A DNA stretch of 64,000 nt, from assembly GCA_010093705.1 (NCBI GenBank), contig MU006094.1:595550-659549 (forward strand), in the 5' to 3' direction. Below are positions 1 to 7,674 of this stretch, piece by piece (the first letter of the stretch is position 1; every line of letters begins with the position of its first letter). Source of the DNA: Patellaria atrata CBS 101060. Its lineage: Eukaryota. The notes under the pieces were generated by a model. The model saw only the letters and a program-made list of their open reading frames with translations, had not been told where the DNA came from and did not search any database. Position numbers and translations under genes: made by a program.

Positions 1-862
1 CGGGGGGAGACTTCGGATACGATGATCTTTTCCGCCCCCTTGGCTTTGAGTGTTTGGATGACGGAAAGGCCGATGGGACCACCTCCAAGGATCAAGACCG
101 CATCTCCGGCTTTGAAAGGGGATATCTTTACAGCATGCCATGCCACGGCTAGAGGCTCAACCAGTGCCCCTATTTCCAGAGAGACGTTGTCCGGAAGATG
201 GTAGAGACACGATTCTGGCACTACTACGTGCTCGGAGAGGCCTCCTCCCCAACCTGCACACAGCGTCAGTTAAGCTCATATTACTCCATGATGATCGATA
301 GAGATGCGTACCGCTTAGCCCAACAAACCCGTTGCTATAGCAGCAATTGATCAAGCCTTCTTTACATGCACCACAAGTCCCATCATAGATGATAGGTTGA
401 AGTACTACTCGATCTCCTACCTTGAAATCATTGACACCTTCTCCTACTTCTTCTACCACACCACTGAACTCGTGCCCGAATGTGAGAGGCACAGTTTCAC
501 CGGTAAGGGGGTGTGGAGTTGTTGGACAGAGACTAGGCCCACCAAGGTACTCATGGAGATCTATATATCATTAACTTTGCTTGCCGATGTTCGCGTGGTA
601 GCTCTTGGTTCTAAAGAGTTCCTAAAACAGGGGATATTTCCAAACAATTGCATACCGCTACCACATATCCCTACCCACGCTGGTTTCATCTGCAAGCACA
701 CTCCTCATCAGTACGGATTGTGCATCATATCGTACACCAAACTGAAGAACTCACTTTGACCTGACCCTTTCCCAGCTGGGGTACCGGGATATCCTCAAGT
801 CTAAGGTCTTCCTTCCCATGGAACCTAACCGCCTTCATCGTCCCATTTTCTGCTGAAGCCAT
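1..862 (-). CDS. Zn-dependent medium-chain dehydrogenase (2,3-butanediol/sorbitol dehydrogenase-like); 3' end runs off window
   Basis: Spliced reading MASAENGTMKAVRFHGKEDLRLEDIPVP...MKPAWVGICGS|DLHEYLGG...GHEFSG...CGACKEGLINCC...GGGPIG. Shows catalytic Zn (GICGSD, GHE), structural Zn cysteines and a Rossmann motif. Three GT-AG introns. Confidence 0.92.
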
Positions 863-1051
863 AGTTGAATTTTAAGTCAAAATCTAATTCAAGAATAAGT
901 GTTCTCAATAGTCAGTTAACGACGGTCCAAAGACACACGTACACCAAATATAGGCAAGACTATTGATCACTTGCCCCCACTCTCGACACCACGTCAGACT
1001 ATAACTATAATGACGGGATACCCAATGCGGTACTACTCCAGGGAAGCTTGG

Positions 1052-1090
1052 CCCCGCATCTCCCCTATGCGGGGTGTCAAACTGGCGGGG
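1052..1090. promoter_or_regulatory. Inverted pair plus extra CreA-type (SYGGRG) sites upstream of the dehydrogenase
   Basis: CCCCGCAT-N7-ATGCGGGG inverted repeat at 1052-1074, GCGGGG at 1085-1090 and CCCCAC near 975. Confidence 0.4.
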
Positions 1091-1516
1091 TAGCTGTATC
1101 CTTCCCTGTACGCTTCCCTACACTGTATGCCCGATGGCGTATGGGCGATTGTGGCCCCGTAAAACTTCAGGAGGATTCTGTACAGTATGGGGCGCATCCT
1201 TTCCAATTGTAGCGTACAAAAGGCTCGTGAACGTTCAGACAAAGGACGGATGCTATTTTGGTGTCCACACATGTCGCGAGCTACAGAACTGAGTGTGGAG
1301 AGAAACGGTGATGATTGAGACCAGCAATGCCAAAGGCATGTCCAGTCATCTATGATGGGAATACAAGACTAAAGGCAATTTGGCCGCCGACGTACCTGTT
1401 CGCAGGACGCATACTCCAACGATTCCTCGATGTCTCCATCCATCATTCTGTGAATTACCAATCCCAGGGGTAAGGCAGTAGTTCATAGCCAGTTGCAAAA
1501 GACGCACCGTACACAC

Positions 1517-4325
1517 CTACCTGATAACTCTCCCATCATCCCTCTCAACCCCATGTAATCCCTCCAAGATATCACTTCCCCCGAGTAAACCCCCACCCCG
1601 TCTCCTTTTTCTCTCCTCTCCCCAAATCTCATGAAACTTGATGCTGCAATCGCTCGTCGCAACCACCAGACATCCCTCTTCCTGCGTTCTATTCCACCAC
1701 ATGCCACCCTCACCCCTATTTCCCATATTCGGGCCACCGGGGTATGGAATAGCGTATAGCGCTCTAATCTCATCAAACCACGGTATCGCAACCACCTGCT
1801 CGCATGCTGGCCAAGTGAACACCGCAATGCGGTAGGGGTGCTCTGGTTGTGCGAAGCCAAAGGTGGCAGCTATCTCGCGACGTGTCGTGCTCCAGACAAG
1901 ACTAGTAACCTGGGCGCTGCAGTCGATGGTTGCGAGGCACGCCCCTGAAAGCGTATGGTAGAAGTGAATGCAGCGATCATTGGAACCACCACCGATGGCG
2001 ATGAGACCACGCTGAAAAGGACAGAAGGCGATTGCTTTGATCGCGGCGTTGAGAGTCCATTGATGTTTTGCTGCGGAAGCATCCAGAGAAAGGACTGAAT
2101 CGACACCAGGGATTATTGTCCATGTTTTGGAGCCGTCACGACCGATGCGAACATTGAGAACAGCAGGTGCAGTTGGATTGTGGTTTGCCAGGACCTTTTT
2201 TGTCTCGAAGAGATAGCAGATATTGTCGTTCGCGCCTGTTGTGAAGAACTCTCCGTCTGGTGACCAAGCCAGGCCGCACACTTGCTGTGAGTGGGGTGAA
2301 AGCCGTGCGAGAAGGGTCATGGAGCCGTGCCAGTCAAAAAGCGCGCAGGTCTGTTCATTAGGCCATTCGATGGCATAGAAATATATGTGACCAGCCTCAT
2401 CGCCAACGAGAAGTTCTTCCGTATTAACAGTGATTGCAGGATCCCGAATCGATTGTCTCTTAACGATCGTGGGGCGAAAACAGACGCATGATACCGATCC
2501 CGGCTGCCGTGAGTCGAATCGTGGTTCCTGATCGAGTGGACTCCAGAGAGTGATGTGGCCGTCAGCACGACCAACTGCAAGAATAGCTGAACCACCTTGA
2601 GTCGAGGAGAATGCTATTGATGTAACGTGTGCTGTTGAGATCGTATTCAGACCATTTGGGGTATTAACACCCCGAGCTTCAGACCAAAGATATACATGGG
2701 ATCCTAGGCCCACCGCGAGGCACTTGACTGTATGAGAGTACGCAAGCAGGGAACAGTAGAAGTCATCCCTCAAAGACGGCGCGTCTAGAACTGTAACAGA
2801 AAGTTAGCAAATGCAAAGTACTCCAGATTCGATCAAGTCATATCTGAAAGGAATGATAGGCACTGGTTTGCGCTGTTTTCTATTTTTCTTATTTACTATC
2901 ATAAGTTAGCGAAAGCTTATGTTTCGTCTTGTTAGGGACTCAACAAGAAACAGAGCCTTCTTTGACCCACTGATTGTCTTTCCATGTGGTATTTGTATAG
3001 AAATCACCTAACCGATTACCGTCGTTGTGATTTTCGGCATTTTTGGAAAGGACGGAACCGAGTATGCGTTCTGTGCGATCAAGATCTAGAGCGAGTGCCA
3101 GACGTCGCTCAAACGTTTCACCTTGACTATCAGGGTCTATTTGATCAAGAAAAGCTGACTTATAAAGAGGAGCGTTGGTTCCGCTACCAATCATACCACC
3201 TCTACCATCGGGAACGGCTATAGAGCTATCACTAACGATTGATGAACCTCCTACGTTCCAGACGGCACCTACACTAACCCGACGAATTCCTAAAGGGTTA
3301 CGGTGGTTACTGAGAACGCCCGGACTATTTGCGGATACCGACCTTGGACGGAGATTATTAATCCGGGACGGACTCATGTCCTCAGTGCCCTGGAGTGTAT
3401 TACGTATTCGCCGCGTGAAAGGATCGGGGCCTGCAGTACGGTTGCGGGATATTCTCTCGTGGAAGGTCAATGTATCGGCAGGTTTCCCCACCTCAAAACT
3501 ATCTCTTGGGCTTCCTAATGAGGGTCTCCTAGGGATAAATCGATCGGGAGTGGAGCCTCCTGCTATCGACCGTGGAGAAACAGCTCCGAAACCAGATCTT
3601 CTGTACGGGAGAGACGGCCGACGTAAAGGAAGCGGGGATAGAGGACTGGAACCACGACTCCTACGAAGCAGTGTAAAGCCTTCTCCTAACAGGTTTAGTG
3701 GAGTAAGTGTAGGTGAAGTGTTCATCTCAGTCTTATACATCAGTGAAACCTCCTTGCTCTCCGCGCAAGAGGATTTAGGTCTATGAAGATCAGAAGACGG
3801 AAAGGGTACTACAATTTCTTTTTCGTTGGATATTTCAAATCTCGAGATGTCTGAATTCCGTAATCCGGAAGTCAAGTCTGAACAAAAGGAACCATCGGAT
3901 GAGTAACCCTCGTCGGTTTCAGCGGTACCATCACTTTGAAAGTAGTCCCATTTAGTAGCGGATCGAGGGTATGATTCTGCTGAATATTGCGACTGCGTAA
4001 TCTTTACTGTAGTTCGTTTTGAATTGTTCTCTTCAGAACTAATGTGTGAACATTGAGTCAATTTAGCAATATGCTTGCGAGATGAACCCTCAGTCTTCTT
4101 CGTCTCAGGGCTGACTTGAACATGACTTCCTGGGGTTAAAGCTCGTCGGCTCTCCCAGATGCAATTCGAGTACCTTTGTAAAGTGTCATGGTTGAAGTCA
4201 TTCTTGTCCCCTGAGGATGACTTGTTTTGTGGACTTGGACAGAACCCCTCATCTTCGTGGAGGTAATCTAACGTGGACAAGTTGAGATATCGTGACTCAT
4301 GCTGTGATTGTCGGTCTGATTCCAT
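1517..4325 (-). CDS. AMA1: Cdc20/Fizzy-family WD40 APC/C activator, Ama1-like (about 902 aa, 3 exons)
   Basis: C-box (PDRFIP) in exon 1 (4325-2945), exon 2 2895-2844 (KPVPIIPF), exon 3 2792-1517 (VLDAPSLRDDFYCSLLAYS, WD40 repeats, GGGSNDRCIHF) and a C-terminal IR tail. Intron 2 must be AT-AC to keep the frame. Confidence 0.85.
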
Positions 4326-4749
4326 ATCGAATTATTCCTGCTTATTTTGTACACATTGAGGAAATTGAATGAAAGGCCCGGACAAATTCGTCCACGCAAT
4401 TTGAAACGCTGGTATTCACAGACCTAATAGAAGGTACCGTGAGACGAAAGTAAACGTATGGTACGAACGGCAGAAGAAAGCTTGCTGTTGCAATTAGTAA
4501 GTAGTCCCGGAATAACAAACGTATTCACACAATAATGCGAGTGCCGCCGTGAAAGATGAAATAATGTTGAGGGAAGAAGGTGTAGGAGTTTAGACCGAAA
4601 GGTGAGGTTGAAGAGAGTACCGTAGCCCGGGCGGCCTTTGATCAGCGGAACGCGTCACTTGCGAGCGTTGCAGTTGCTCTCCCAACTCCAAGCACGATAT
4701 AGTAACTTTCTCAACGAGCAGCTCTTACTTATCCTGAATGACATAGATC

Positions 4750-5963
4750 ATGGCTAGCGTGAGCACTTTTCATTTTTCCAGCGTGAAGTCTAAATAACCA
4801 CTAATACTGGGCGTCGCAGCATGGAGTACCTCGTGTATCGGCCTCAGAAGCTCCTACTGAGAAGTCAAGACAGCAAGAGCTTCGGAAAATCGAACAGTAT
4901 AAGGAACTGGTGAATTTAGTTAACACCAAGGTAAACTATCACAAGACCTTAGTTGCAACATAATACTCAGGTACCCTAGGCCGCAGAACAACAGTATACC
5001 ACAGAGGTTTTAGCACTCACTTCTACGTTGTTGAAGACTAATCCCGAGTATTACACGATATGGAATTATCGACGCAGGATACTTCAGTACCAGTTCAACC
5101 AATATGTCAAGGACCGGGCTCTCGGCGACGAAAACCATCAAGATGGGCAGGCGAACGTTGGCTCCGACCTCATTACGACTGACCTTCGTTTCATTATCCC
5201 TCTACTCATCGAATACCCTAAATGCTATTGGATATGGAATCATAGGTTGTGGTTATTACAACAATCATCCACCATATCGGGAGATAGTGTTTCCCTTCAG
5301 CTATGGCAGGAAGAGCTTGGGTTGGTAGGGAAAATGCTGCGTAGGGACAGTAGGAACTTCCTCGGCTGGAATTATAGACGACACGTGGTCGCTCAGTTAG
5401 AATTCCTGGGTCAACCGGAAAAGGAATCAGAGAGCATGACGGAAACCGAGTTCGCTTATACCACGAGAATGATCAAAGTCAATTTGTCCAACTTCTCAGC
5501 CTGGCATAATAGGAGTAAACTTATACCGAAATTACTTAACGAACGTAGTGCCGATGAATCAGCGCGGCGGAAGGTTCTTGATGCGGAATTTAAGCAGATC
5601 CAACGAGCGCTCTATACGGATCCCTATGATCAGTCACTGTGGTTCTATTATCAATTTCTAATGAGCACAATATCTCCCTCAGCGAAAAGGAGCTCTTTAA
5701 TTTTGCTGGAAATCACGAACTATGATCGCTTAAACTTTTACGAGCGCGAACTCGACAACCTGAGAGATATGCTGGACGGTGCTGAAGATTGCAAATGGAT
5801 ATACCAAGCCCTATTACAATATACATCTATCTATCTCGAACTGGATGCCGGTAACAAGACTATCACGACCTCCGAGATGCGGGCCTGGCTTGAAGAGCTT
5901 CGTAAACTCGATCCTCTTCGAAAGTCAAGATGGGATGACATGGAACAACGTCTTAATCTTTGA
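4750..5963 (+). CDS. BET4: Rab geranylgeranyltransferase (type II) alpha subunit
   Basis: MAS|HGVPR start with 2 introns. PPTA repeats NPEYYTIWNYRR, PKCYWIWNHR, SRNFLGWNYRR, SNFSAWHNRS and DQSLWFY. Confidence 0.93.
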
Positions 5964-5979
5964 TCCATTGTTAAGGGCC

Positions 5980-7674
5980 TCAGCTCTTCCATCTCAACAT
6001 GGTCAGCGAGAGCTTGGGGAAAGAAAAGCTATTTGCTCCATCCCAAGTGCTTTCAGTAATACCAACTTCACAGCTGTCGCTTGTATTGACGACATTTATA
6101 TCACGGCCGGATACCGTGTACACTTGGACATCTGAACCCTCAATACCATCCAAACGTACCGAAAAATCCTTAGTTTCGTGGATATTTACGACAGCCATAC
6201 TTATCATTCCATCATCCGAGATTGCTGCGCTTACGTCTAACCAAGGAGTCTCGATCGTGCCTCGGATCCAGACTGGCATCGTTGGACCTTCGTATTCTCC
6301 ACATCTAACGTTCACTGCTAGTGTATGACCTCGCATATACTTGCTGAACAATAATAGAGGCCACCATGTAGTCTGCTTAAGAATTCCCGACTTTGTAGTC
6401 ACCAATGGTGATATTACGTTTACTGACTGCGCAATGTTGGCCATTCCTATGTAACGGGATTGACGGATGAAGACATTCAGCCAGATGCTGACAGCGAGAG
6501 CATCTGAAAGTGTGTACCTGCTCTCAAGGTTAGCAGATTACAGTACAGAGCGTGAATTCCCAAAGCAAAGCGTAAGTGACGCACTTCTCTTCAGCTCCCT
6601 GCTCTCCGGGTGCTCTTAGGGGATCCCATACATTCCACTCATCAAAACAAATTGTCTGTCGAGGCACTGTTGGGGGCACCTTATTCTCGATGCGAGCTAA
6701 GTCGATCAGACCTGCTGTTATCTCAATAGCTCTCTCAGCAGAGCGAGGAGCTATCAAAAGTTAGGAGTCCCCAAAAACGTATTGGAGCTGACATCTTACC
6801 TGTTGCATTTGGAAGATGCTCCGAGGAAGCTGTGTAGATGTGTATACTATGCATCGAGATCAACGAAGCGGTGGTATCGCCACCTAGGCCATGGATATCA
6901 CATCGGATACATTCTTTCAAGACGTAAGAATCCCAAGTGCTATATCCATCTTGTCCGCAAAGTATCAACTGTATGGAGGGATCTAGAAGTTTGAGTGCTT
7001 TTGCCCATTGGTATGCTCTTTTCGCATAGTCTTCCTTGGTCATTTGACCGACCTGCCATGGTCCCCACATTTCGTTCCCTAGAGCCCAATACTTGACATT
7101 ATATGGCTTCTCTCGACCATTTTTCCGCCGGAGGTTTGCGTAATAGGTATTGGCCGAAGAATTGCAGTACTCAACCCATCCCAGGGCTTCATCAAGAGTT
7201 CCTGTCCCAAAATTCAAAGCAAGATAGGGCTCAGTACGAACGACTTCACACCAATGAAGAAATTCATCAGTTCCAAATTCATTAGTCTCCAGTCCCAACC
7301 ACGCGAGCTCGGGTCTAGGTGGTCGCTGATCTTTAGGTCCAACTCCGTCCAGCCAATGATAGGTGGCAACAAAGTTTCCACCAGGATATCTAACTACGGG
7401 CACTTTCAATTCTTGTAGAGCCTCAATAACATCCTTGCGGAAACCGTTTTCGTCTGACAGAGGATTTCCTGGGTCGTATATCCCTCCATAGATACATCGA
7501 CCCATGTGCCTGGTTACAATATCAGCATTGATCTGGTTTATTAAAACGGCATCTCGATTTCACCCACTCCGTGAACCCTCCATAGATGTTGTCATTTATT
7601 TTAGATATCTTATGTGATGCATTGATTGATATCGATGGTTCTTCTGTGTCTAAGATCTTGGTAAAGGCAGCCAT
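5980..7674 (-). CDS. abfC: GH51 alpha-L-arabinofuranosidase, intracellular AbfC type
   Basis: GFTE|HMGRCIYGGIY, RYPGGNF, WALGNE (acid/base), FDEWN (nucleophile) and ANIAQSVNVI. Three GT-AG introns; no signal peptide. Confidence 0.93.

Follow-up and report, generated by a model that had tools for sequence, protein, structure and literature searches.

A conserved U2-type AT-AC intron within an Ama1-like gene of Patellaria atrata and related lineages

In a 64,000-nucleotide (nt) stretch of the Patellaria atrata CBS 101060 genome (contig MU006094.1, positions 595,550 to 659,549, in the following called the window), an Ama1-like gene on the minus strand is interrupted at 2843–2793 by an intron of 51 nt whose terminal dinucleotides are AT and AC. 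The intron is real, belongs to a known kind, the U2-type AT-AC introns, and has been conserved since ancient times at one coding position of this gene. We consider it highly probable that it is a genuine U2-dependent spliceosomal intron, old and shared by lineages placed among the Dothideomycetes, Lecanoromycetes and Leotiomycetes; a regulatory role of the intron is speculative. No description of an AT-AC intron in AMA1 was found in the literature on AT-AC introns, AMA1 and Pezizomycotina, part of which was represented by titles and the beginnings of abstracts.

The Ama1-like gene and its AT-AC intron

The gene has the following parts, given in window coordinates from its 5′ to its 3′ end.

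2945–4325, minus strand: exon 1, with the ATG at 4325, inside an open frame from 2940 to 4331; it ends at the base before the donor
3545–3531, minus strand: C-box DRFIP, read in exon 1
2896–2944, minus strand: intron 1, GT-AG, 49 nt, phase 1 (GTTGAGT...GCTAAC...GATAG), placed by frame and consensus
2844–2895, minus strand: micro-exon of 52 nt, placed by frame and conservation, with a basic stretch, ...KPVPIIPF and the AG of an Arg codon; it ends ...CCT TTC AG
2793–2843, minus strand: AT-AC intron, 51 nt, phase 2, with the 5′ site ATATGA at 2843–2838 and the 3′ end TTAC at 2796–2793
2808–2803, minus strand: branch box GCTAAC of the AT-AC intron, with the branch A at 2804, 11 nt from the 3′ end
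2804–2806, minus strand: in-frame TAA that is met after 13 residues if the AT-AC intron is retained
2791–2792, minus strand: AG directly after the AC, a competing canonical acceptor; with the AT donor it gives a frameshift, with the donor of intron 1 an in-frame skip of the micro-exon
1517–2792, minus strand: exon 3, with the last base of the Arg codon, VLDAP..., the WD40 propeller, the IR tail and the stop, inside an open frame from 1517 to 2803
1525–1520 and 1519–1517, minus strand: IR tail and stop codon at the end of exon 3

Exon 3 on its own matched PF24807 (CDC20/Fizzy WD40) with an E-value of 3.9e-58 and 197.5 bits, the curated cut-off being 200, and the orthologue P0004 matched solved Cdc20/Cdh1 structures at E ~1e-38. 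Both ends of the Cdc20/Fizzy co-activator plan are present, DRFIPRR as the C-box of exon 1 and ...VIR immediately before the stop. The best matches of exon 3 are 60–69% identical and are named by their sources AMA1 (several as "meiosis-specific APC/C activator protein AMA1", referring to the anaphase-promoting complex/cyclosome) or WD40 repeat-like, and our label Ama1 follows these names. Exon 1 was taken to end at the donor GTTGAGT (2944), since no other donor brings the micro-exon into frame. An intron upstream of the micro-exon appears likewise in many orthologous loci, where the in-frame peptide stops about 17–25 codons upstream. All three exons are open, with no premature in-frame TAG or TAA within the coding exons.

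On the minus strand the intron reads ATATGA...TTGCTAAC...GTTAC with the branch box GCTAAC, exactly as the first-pass annotation had written it. Excision of these 51 nt yields, in the frame model, an open frame through PFRVLDAP without a stop (exon 3 starts A GTT CTA GAC GCG CCG), whereas with the intron kept 13 codons are followed by the TAA at 2806–2804 and the product is truncated ahead of the WD40 propeller; on both points the first-pass annotation was right. Because an A flanks both intron ends, the boundary is formally ambiguous by one base and could be written AT-AC or TA-CA. In one orthologous locus (L040), however, exon 3 begins with G, and GT-AG introns of other orthologues lie in the same phase; the boundary is therefore AT-AC.

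The first-pass annotation had raised the possibility that raw reads carry GT and AG at these termini. We compared the contigs (11.8 kb and 9.9 kb) of two public DNA runs from one sample with window positions 1–6500 and found 0 differing letters, at word depths of 317 and 452. Both contigs cross introns and intergenic DNA uninterrupted, as expected of DNA. Since the runs may be the assembly's own source, the comparison rules out an assembler slip and does not amount to independent confirmation.

Conservation, anatomy and distribution of the intron

We scanned metagenome contigs with an alignment of 30 orthologues, obtained 80 loci and read the junction upstream of the DAP.LRDD motif. The junction was informative in 75 of them; L006, L046, L077 and L078 stop short of it and L034 contains the 3′ end only (...TAC). 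An AT-AC intron at the same position, in phase 2 of the Arg/Lys codon, is present in 31 of the 75 informative loci, so the alignment across the PFR/VLDAP junction that the first-pass annotation had called for revealed conserved AT-AC termini. GT-AG introns occupy the same position in 15 loci and lie 2 nt further downstream in one more (L048); in 25 loci there is no intron and PF/Y-R/K-V/I-L is contiguous. The remaining loci have AT-AG (L032 and L037) or AT-AA (L036) termini. GT-AC was seen in 0 of the 75.

With the window counted, there are 24 distinct AT-AC intron sequences (22 in the anatomy analysis below, plus L061 and L073, which were read by eye) and 13 distinct GT-AG sequences. An AT-AC intron found as 24 distinct sequences at one position is not a product of chance. 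The exon-3 frames of the AT-AC loci are intact over 422–472 amino acids (aa), except in L074, where a TGA stops the frame after 41 aa, perhaps because of a further intron; those of the AT-AG and AT-AA loci are intact as well (425 aa). The shifted GT-AG intron of L048 (3001–4167, Mycosphaerellales-like) reads ...CGAG/GTATGT...CGCAG/TA and looks like an intron sliding out of a non-canonical state.

For the anatomy of the intron, we set the 22 distinct AT-AC introns (46–53 nt, window included) against the 13 distinct GT-AG introns; 38 distinct introns were scanned. A+1, T+2, G+5, A-2 and C-1 are each present in 22/22 AT-AC introns. T+6 is found in 21 of them, the exception being the window intron itself (ATATGA), and a pyrimidine at -3 also in 21. 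A CTRAY or TTRAY branch A lies 10–11 nt from the 3′ end in 20/22 AT-AC introns and at 10 nt in 9/13 GT-AG introns, while the intron interiors vary freely between orthologues. Neither an ATATCC start nor a branch box of the CCTTAAC/CCTTGAC type occurs in any of the 38 introns. The first-pass annotation had described the intron as U2-like and not U12-like, and this description is borne out by the RNGT-like positions +3 to +6, by the CTRAY branch box and by the lack of ATATCC and of TCCTTAAC. These sequences suggest a single homologous intron of the major class, with two alternative states of its terminal bases. The spacing from branch point to acceptor is unusually short and fixed (10–11 nt) in almost all orthologous introns, whatever their termini.

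The segment upstream of the junction behaves as coding sequence. Its frame is open for at least 17 codons in every intron-bearing locus, and the peptide pattern [RK]x[VL]Pxx PF[RK] recurs in 22/22 distinct AT-AC and 13/13 GT-AG loci, with synonymous variation in the codons for Pro (CCA/CCT/CCG/CCC) and Phe (TTC/TTT) and with the split codon as AG/A, CG/A, AA/A or AA/G. Where the intron is absent, in the 25 intronless loci and in open reading frames (ORFs) of Eurotiales-like origin, this segment runs on into LDAP without a break, and it aligns to ...KIPFKVLDAPELQDDFY (...KIPFKVLDAP) of human Cdh1 and to ...IPSLPDRILDAP of human Cdc20 in solved structures (query P0004). Retention leads to a stop in 22/22 AT-AC introns examined. 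Conserved as no skipped exon would be, the micro-exon must join VLDAP in frame; in species with the AT-AC form, the AT-AC intron must therefore be removed.

To place the intron states, we computed a quick maximum-likelihood tree from 62 distinct locus proteins, 37 named anchors and the Logan ORF P0080 (100 rows in all), with branch support from the Shimodaira–Hasegawa-like approximate likelihood ratio test (SH-aLRT). The tree omits ten loci identical in exon-3 protein, frames below 300 aa (L065, L072, L074, L076) and five loci in which the motif was missed (L046, L061, L073, L077, L078). AT-AC loci form 12 rows in a clade with Lecanoromycete anchors. Among Dothideomycete anchors they comprise the window, L001, loci grouping with Pleosporales and L015, which stands beside a Mycosphaerellales-like clade; among Leotiomycete anchors they comprise L040 with Oidiodendron, L043 with Pseudogymnoascus, and L047, to which Botrytis may be added by inference. 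The Dothideomycetes, Lecanoromycetes and Leotiomycetes diverged hundreds of millions of years ago.

GT-AG is nearly confined to a Sordariales-like clade, in which L063 is 90–93% identical to named Sordariales proteins; otherwise it occurs in L039 and L042. The sister group of this pair is the AT-AG/AT-AA trio, with L032 being 97% identical to a Stipitochalara longipes protein. The donors of L039 and L042, the nearest relatives of the trio, are weak (GTAAAA/GTAAAC), and together the five loci may represent a living series from AT-AC over AT-AG to GT-AG. Intronless loci cluster with Hortaea, Lecanosticta, Friedmanniomyces and others. Over the tree, the first base changes between A and G three times, the last base between C and another base three times, and the intron between presence and absence seven times.

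Eurotiales-like orthologues (Penicillium, Aspergillus) have no intron at this site: in L079, which is 80% identical to a Penicillium protein, and in P0261–P0380 the segment is contiguous, even in plain ORFs. These sequences read ...PFRILDAP or ...PFRTLDAP, with Ile or Thr in place of the Val of other lineages. They had been considered as an outgroup that could polarise the ancestral state and were set aside, being without the intron. The direction of change is thus unproven, there being neither evidence to root the tree nor an intron in the Eurotiales-like sequences; the simplest reading of the sequences would be one old AT-AC state, followed by later reversion and repeated loss.

Signs of splicing came from relatives. 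In Botrytis cinerea B05.10, the protein Bcama1 (P0188, 792 aa; in NCBI, UniRef and Logan) has the joined form ...LPVAPFKVLDAP (...APFKVLDAP). The region is read through in P0189 and P0190, two further B. cinerea models of 776 aa, with 16 extra codons, Ile-Ser first and Ser-Thr last, before VLDAP. The initial Ile and the final Thr imply, given the frames, an intron of 47 nt with AT...AC termini, and hence that the named B05.10 model, which we take to have been curated with RNA-seq, already splices an AT-AC intron. In Oidiodendron maius, the annotated protein P0247 skips the micro-exon (...GGPEH continues into NAPNLRDD), while in its 90% cluster ORFs of 490–819 aa on Logan contigs of 2.7–4.8 kb are joined as ...LPISPFKVLDAP; the AT-AC locus L040 is 89% identical to O. 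maius in exon 3. A Lecanoromycete-like cluster includes the 901-aa ORFs P0080 and P0229, on contigs of 3.2–3.3 kb, with ...PFRVLDAP, and P0080 nests in the tree among AT-AC loci placed with Lecanoromycetes. As direct proof of AT-AC splicing P0080 was rejected, because its best match to a genomic locus is just 79% (L038, L053).

The ORFs of these clusters are taken to be plain open frames on contigs, in keeping with 28 of the 105 proteins from one orthologue search that begin just within the intron; full-length frames on contigs of mRNA size were therefore read as spliced transcripts. The residue before the Val in 31 ORFs starting in the intron is Thr (AC) in 8 and Arg (AG) in 15, and unreadable in 8. 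P0226, an ORF of 444 aa on a 3368-nt contig, covers exon 1 together with the micro-exon and has its stop immediately behind ...PFR; the first residues of P0227 are LDAP. Neither discriminates between A and G at +1 or between C and G at -1, and both were discarded as evidence on the termini. Taken together, these sequences suggest that the AT-AC intron is probably spliced out. Junctions of this kind are found elsewhere in fungi: the section of PMC4324775 on Trichoderma longibrachiatum RNA-seq counts AT-AC at 69 of 14305 junctions, and AT-AC is described as rare in fungal annotations in the survey text of PMC7072748. Matches to "AT-AC" in PMC9907504 were polyketide-synthase domain strings and thus irrelevant.

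Mechanism, persistence and a possible regulatory gate

Owing to its ordinary remaining signals, the intron would be recognised by U1/U6 and U2 as usual. According to passages of PMC11585973, the first base of an intron meets the last in a non-Watson-Crick G-G pair when the exons are ligated, and A-C can substitute for it; in the AMA1 intron an A-C pair, established in yeast, would take that place. Exact removal would join the micro-exon to the WD40 exon, complete the Arg codon and restore PFRVLDAP. Retention would end translation ahead of the propeller, and use of the AG two bases downstream with the AT donor would shift the frame. In the Sordariales-like clade and one small Leotiomycete group AT-AC would have been replaced by GT-AG, and in several lineages the intron would have been deleted. 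The AT-AC termini likely carry a cost in splicing efficiency. Their persistence is, in our preferred explanation, due to the fact that both termini must change together, so that single-step reversion would be selected against.

The closest known systems are the U2-dependent ("type II") AT-AC introns, represented by yeast RPL30 and a yeast suppressor pair, which have the same termini on otherwise major-class 5′ and branch sites. Passages of PMC11585973 mention one natural AT-AC intron in S. cerevisiae, inside the RPL30 intron, and cite Parker and Siliciano 1993 for the pair of G1A and its 3′ G-to-C suppressor. As with the yeast A-C pair, the first and last bases of the orthologous introns change together, to GT-AG or AT-AC and never GT-AC, and as in yeast the host group is reported to be without a minor spliceosome. 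Unlike the RPL30 case, the AMA1 intron splits a coding junction that needs exact joining, is conserved across lineages placed in three classes and would, by its build, be removed by the major spliceosome, and natural AT-AG/AT-AA forms adjoin a GT-AG revertant. The AMA1 intron is a natural deep-time replicate of the first/last-base match known from yeast, with G...G or A...C and never G...C. The living AT-AG and AT-AA forms beside a GT-AG lineage open the evolutionary path between these states to study.

Several points weigh against an old, U2-dependent AT-AC intron that is removed exactly. The taxon labels of the loci come from similarity to named proteins and from a quick gene tree in which 31 of 97 forks are unsupported. 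The covariation of the termini rests on few events: an independent-pairs test had three pairs, of which two agree and one shows no difference, with a median p of 0.5, so the argument from covariation stands on counts and conservation. In L032 and L037 (AT-AG) and L036 (AT-AA), A at +1 is combined with a last base G or A while the frames are intact; these fungi either admit exceptions to the A-C rule or splice these genes poorly. The two DNA runs represent one sample and are possibly the assembly's own source; they are the two listed runs with window DNA, both behave as DNA, and neither is on record as RNA. Splicing in relatives depends on the inference that Logan contigs of 2.7–4.8 kb with full-length ORFs are mRNA-derived, and the B. 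cinerea termini were deduced through protein read-through, not from DNA. Finally, the absence of the minor spliceosome is taken from literature on Ascomycota/Pezizomycotina and not from the genome of the window itself.

The first-pass annotation had further proposed a gate, in which inefficient or regulated AT-AC splicing may restrict Ama1. Selection would then keep the termini because they make removal of the intron slow or stage-dependent, and functional Ama1 would arise only in sexual development. We regard this as possible and on balance unlikely. Its background was sound: the promotion of yeast AMA1 splicing by Mer1 is described in passages of PMC11585973, and FgAMA1 of Fusarium graminearum is PSC33, which needs restorative adenosine-to-inosine (A-to-I) editing according to parts of PMC10776026 and PMC4817773. 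The text available on FgAMA1 orthologues of Sordariomycetes also reports six independent origins of a premature stop at the same site, which its authors contrast with the splicing of yeast AMA1. AMA1 is thus controlled post-transcriptionally in two other lineages. S. cerevisiae AMA1/SPO70, activated by Mer1, is a member of the same family in which, as here, an intron with a weak, non-consensus 5′ site has to be removed for active protein. In yeast, the intron has GU-AG termini and carries a Mer1 enhancer, whereas the window intron is AT-AC and no enhancer is visible: a direct reading for AYACCCUY found no ACCC anywhere in its 51 nt, which argues against a gate of the Mer1 type. FgAMA1 belongs to the same orthologue group, and its product, like that of the window gene, is truncated unless a step at the RNA level intervenes; there the mechanism is deamination of a premature stop, here it would be splicing, and the exons of the window gene have no in-frame stop.

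A gate would fit the near confinement of canonical GT-AG to a Sordariales-like clade, of a class reported to have the editing system. It would also fit three Sordariomycete-like loci that have TAG in place of a conserved Trp codon, while no such in-frame TAG was seen in the exon-3 frames of the AT-AC loci. In L065 and L072 this TAG is at the same site, codon 147 after DAP (...WPE.-stop-EV...), and in L076 at codon 115 (...CLS-stop-KP...); in all three the frame stays open past it to the normal ...IR end, and L065 shares 78% identity with a protein of Xylaria digitata. These TAGs resemble the restorative A-to-I editing sites of FgAMA1 (PSC33). Two expression-related observations point the same way: Bcama1 transcripts are up in apothecial disks, as an excerpt of PMC5821092 states, and P0226, which ends at ...PFR beside the joined 901-aa ORFs, is compatible with a transcript that retains the intron at the AT-AC position alone.

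On the other side, the intron has been deleted in many lineages (25 of 75 loci; seven presence/absence changes) and is absent from Eurotiales-like sequences, so it is dispensable, which argues against an indispensable gate. The link to Sordariomycetes amounts to a single phylogenetic event, a transcript-sized Oidiodendron contig retains a different, upstream intron while its VLDAP junction is joined, and the need to change both termini together suffices to explain persistence. The wider proposal, that the gate is ancient and selected in Dothideomycetes, Lecanoromycetes and Leotiomycetes and was relaxed to GT-AG in Sordariomycetes once stop editing took over, we hold to be doubtful to the same degree; slow or factor-dependent removal of the intron would on this view exclude functional Ama1 from vegetative cells. 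If it were true, gating of AMA1 at the RNA level would have been reinvented three times, by Mer1 splicing, by an AT-AC intron and by stop-codon editing. AMA1 is already known to be activated through its RNA in two unrelated ways, so that a weak intron as a developmental gate becomes a testable question.

Other readings of the junction

Among the readings that deny the AT-AC intron, one that leaves the micro-exon unused fares best, and we give it a slim chance. The true intron would then be GT-AG at 2944–2791 and the protein would run ...SVS, one Phe, LDAP. We enumerated every GT/GC...AG combination between 2990 and 2780 and kept those open into the WD40 domain, which left 4 single-intron and 36 two-intron GT/GC-AG models. 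The likeliest of them is this same single intron, which skips the micro-exon in frame and gives ...SVSF-LDAP. The first-pass annotation had found no plausible frame-restoring GT-AG alternative within exon 2; this holds there and fails beyond it, given the in-frame intron 2944–2791 and the 40 canonical models. In 0 of these 40 does the conserved segment ...PVPIIPFR survive. AT-AC excision is thus not the sole reading that keeps the frame, but it is the sole one that retains the conserved peptide.

Many public gene models also leave the micro-exon unused or read through it. A protein search with exon 3 listed 120 proteins of 750–2140 aa and 50–69% identity, from Dothideomycetes, Lecanoromycetes, Leotiomycetes and a few others. 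Among these listed models, ...P[FY][RK]V stands immediately in front of LDAP in 50; another 55 pass from the end of exon 1 to [LVIF]LDAP by a jump or by read-through, and 15 gave no motif match. The residue preceding LDAP in the 55 is L in 20, V in 18, I in 14 and F in 3, as expected if predictors took the AG two bases past the AC; from this pattern we suspect that the AT-AC oddity is widespread. The skipping and read-through models include most of the listed Pleosporales, Sclerotinia sclerotiorum and several Botrytis and Pseudogymnoascus models, and the public O. maius model removes even VLD of exon 3.

That a skip of the micro-exon keeps the frame is, however, explained by phases alone, intron 1 being in phase 1 and an AG lying two bases past the phase-2 site. 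The peptide of the micro-exon is kept across classes with synonymous changes, matches the segment conserved in the human Cdh1 and Cdc20 structures, is encoded contiguously by intronless orthologues (25 loci and Eurotiales-like ORFs) and is joined in the named Bcama1 model and in transcript-sized ORFs. The public models that skip or read through the micro-exon are probably annotation errors due to the AT-AC intron. They constitute an annotation trap, as they lose a segment conserved as far as human Cdh1.

It is very improbable that A+1 is edited to inosine during sexual development, turning the donor into a canonical-looking GT. A-to-I editing does exist in the sexual stages of some ascomycetes, and an edited +1 would make the AT-AG loci L032 and L037 GT-AG. 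An edited donor would, however, be a poor partner for the terminal C, which is conserved. A preference of fungal editing for U at -1 is noted in an excerpt of PMC11156358, and the base at -1 here is G or A; moreover, the accessible text of one paper traces the editing system to the Sordariomycete ancestor, outside the AT-AC lineages.

A U12-type intron spliced by the minor spliceosome has next to no likelihood: it shares with the window intron the terminal dinucleotides and nothing else, as U12-type AT-AC introns carry an ATATCC 5′ box and a TCCTTAAC branch box, whereas the 5′ site here is ATATGA, a CCTTAAC-type box occurs in none of the 38 introns, the short U2-type build is common to the GT-AG orthologues, and U12 splicing is reported missing in Ascomycota/Pezizomycotina in the part of PMC2846911 consulted, in agreement with the statement of the first-pass annotation that Pezizomycotina are without the minor spliceosome. 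Equally negligible is a sequencing or assembly error hiding true GT and AG termini, given the identity over 6500 bases at word depths of 317 and 452, the loss of frame that GT at 2843 with AG at 2792–2791 would cause, and the same AT-AC in 31 independent loci.

The Ama1-like gene is flanked in the window by a zinc-type alcohol dehydrogenase gene with introns (PF08240; 1–880, minus strand) on its downstream side and by a divergent gene with protein prenyltransferase alpha-subunit repeats (PF01239, E 3.3e-38; 4980–5963, plus strand). An alpha-L-arabinofuranosidase C-terminal domain (PF06964) is encoded at 5980–6537 on the minus strand.

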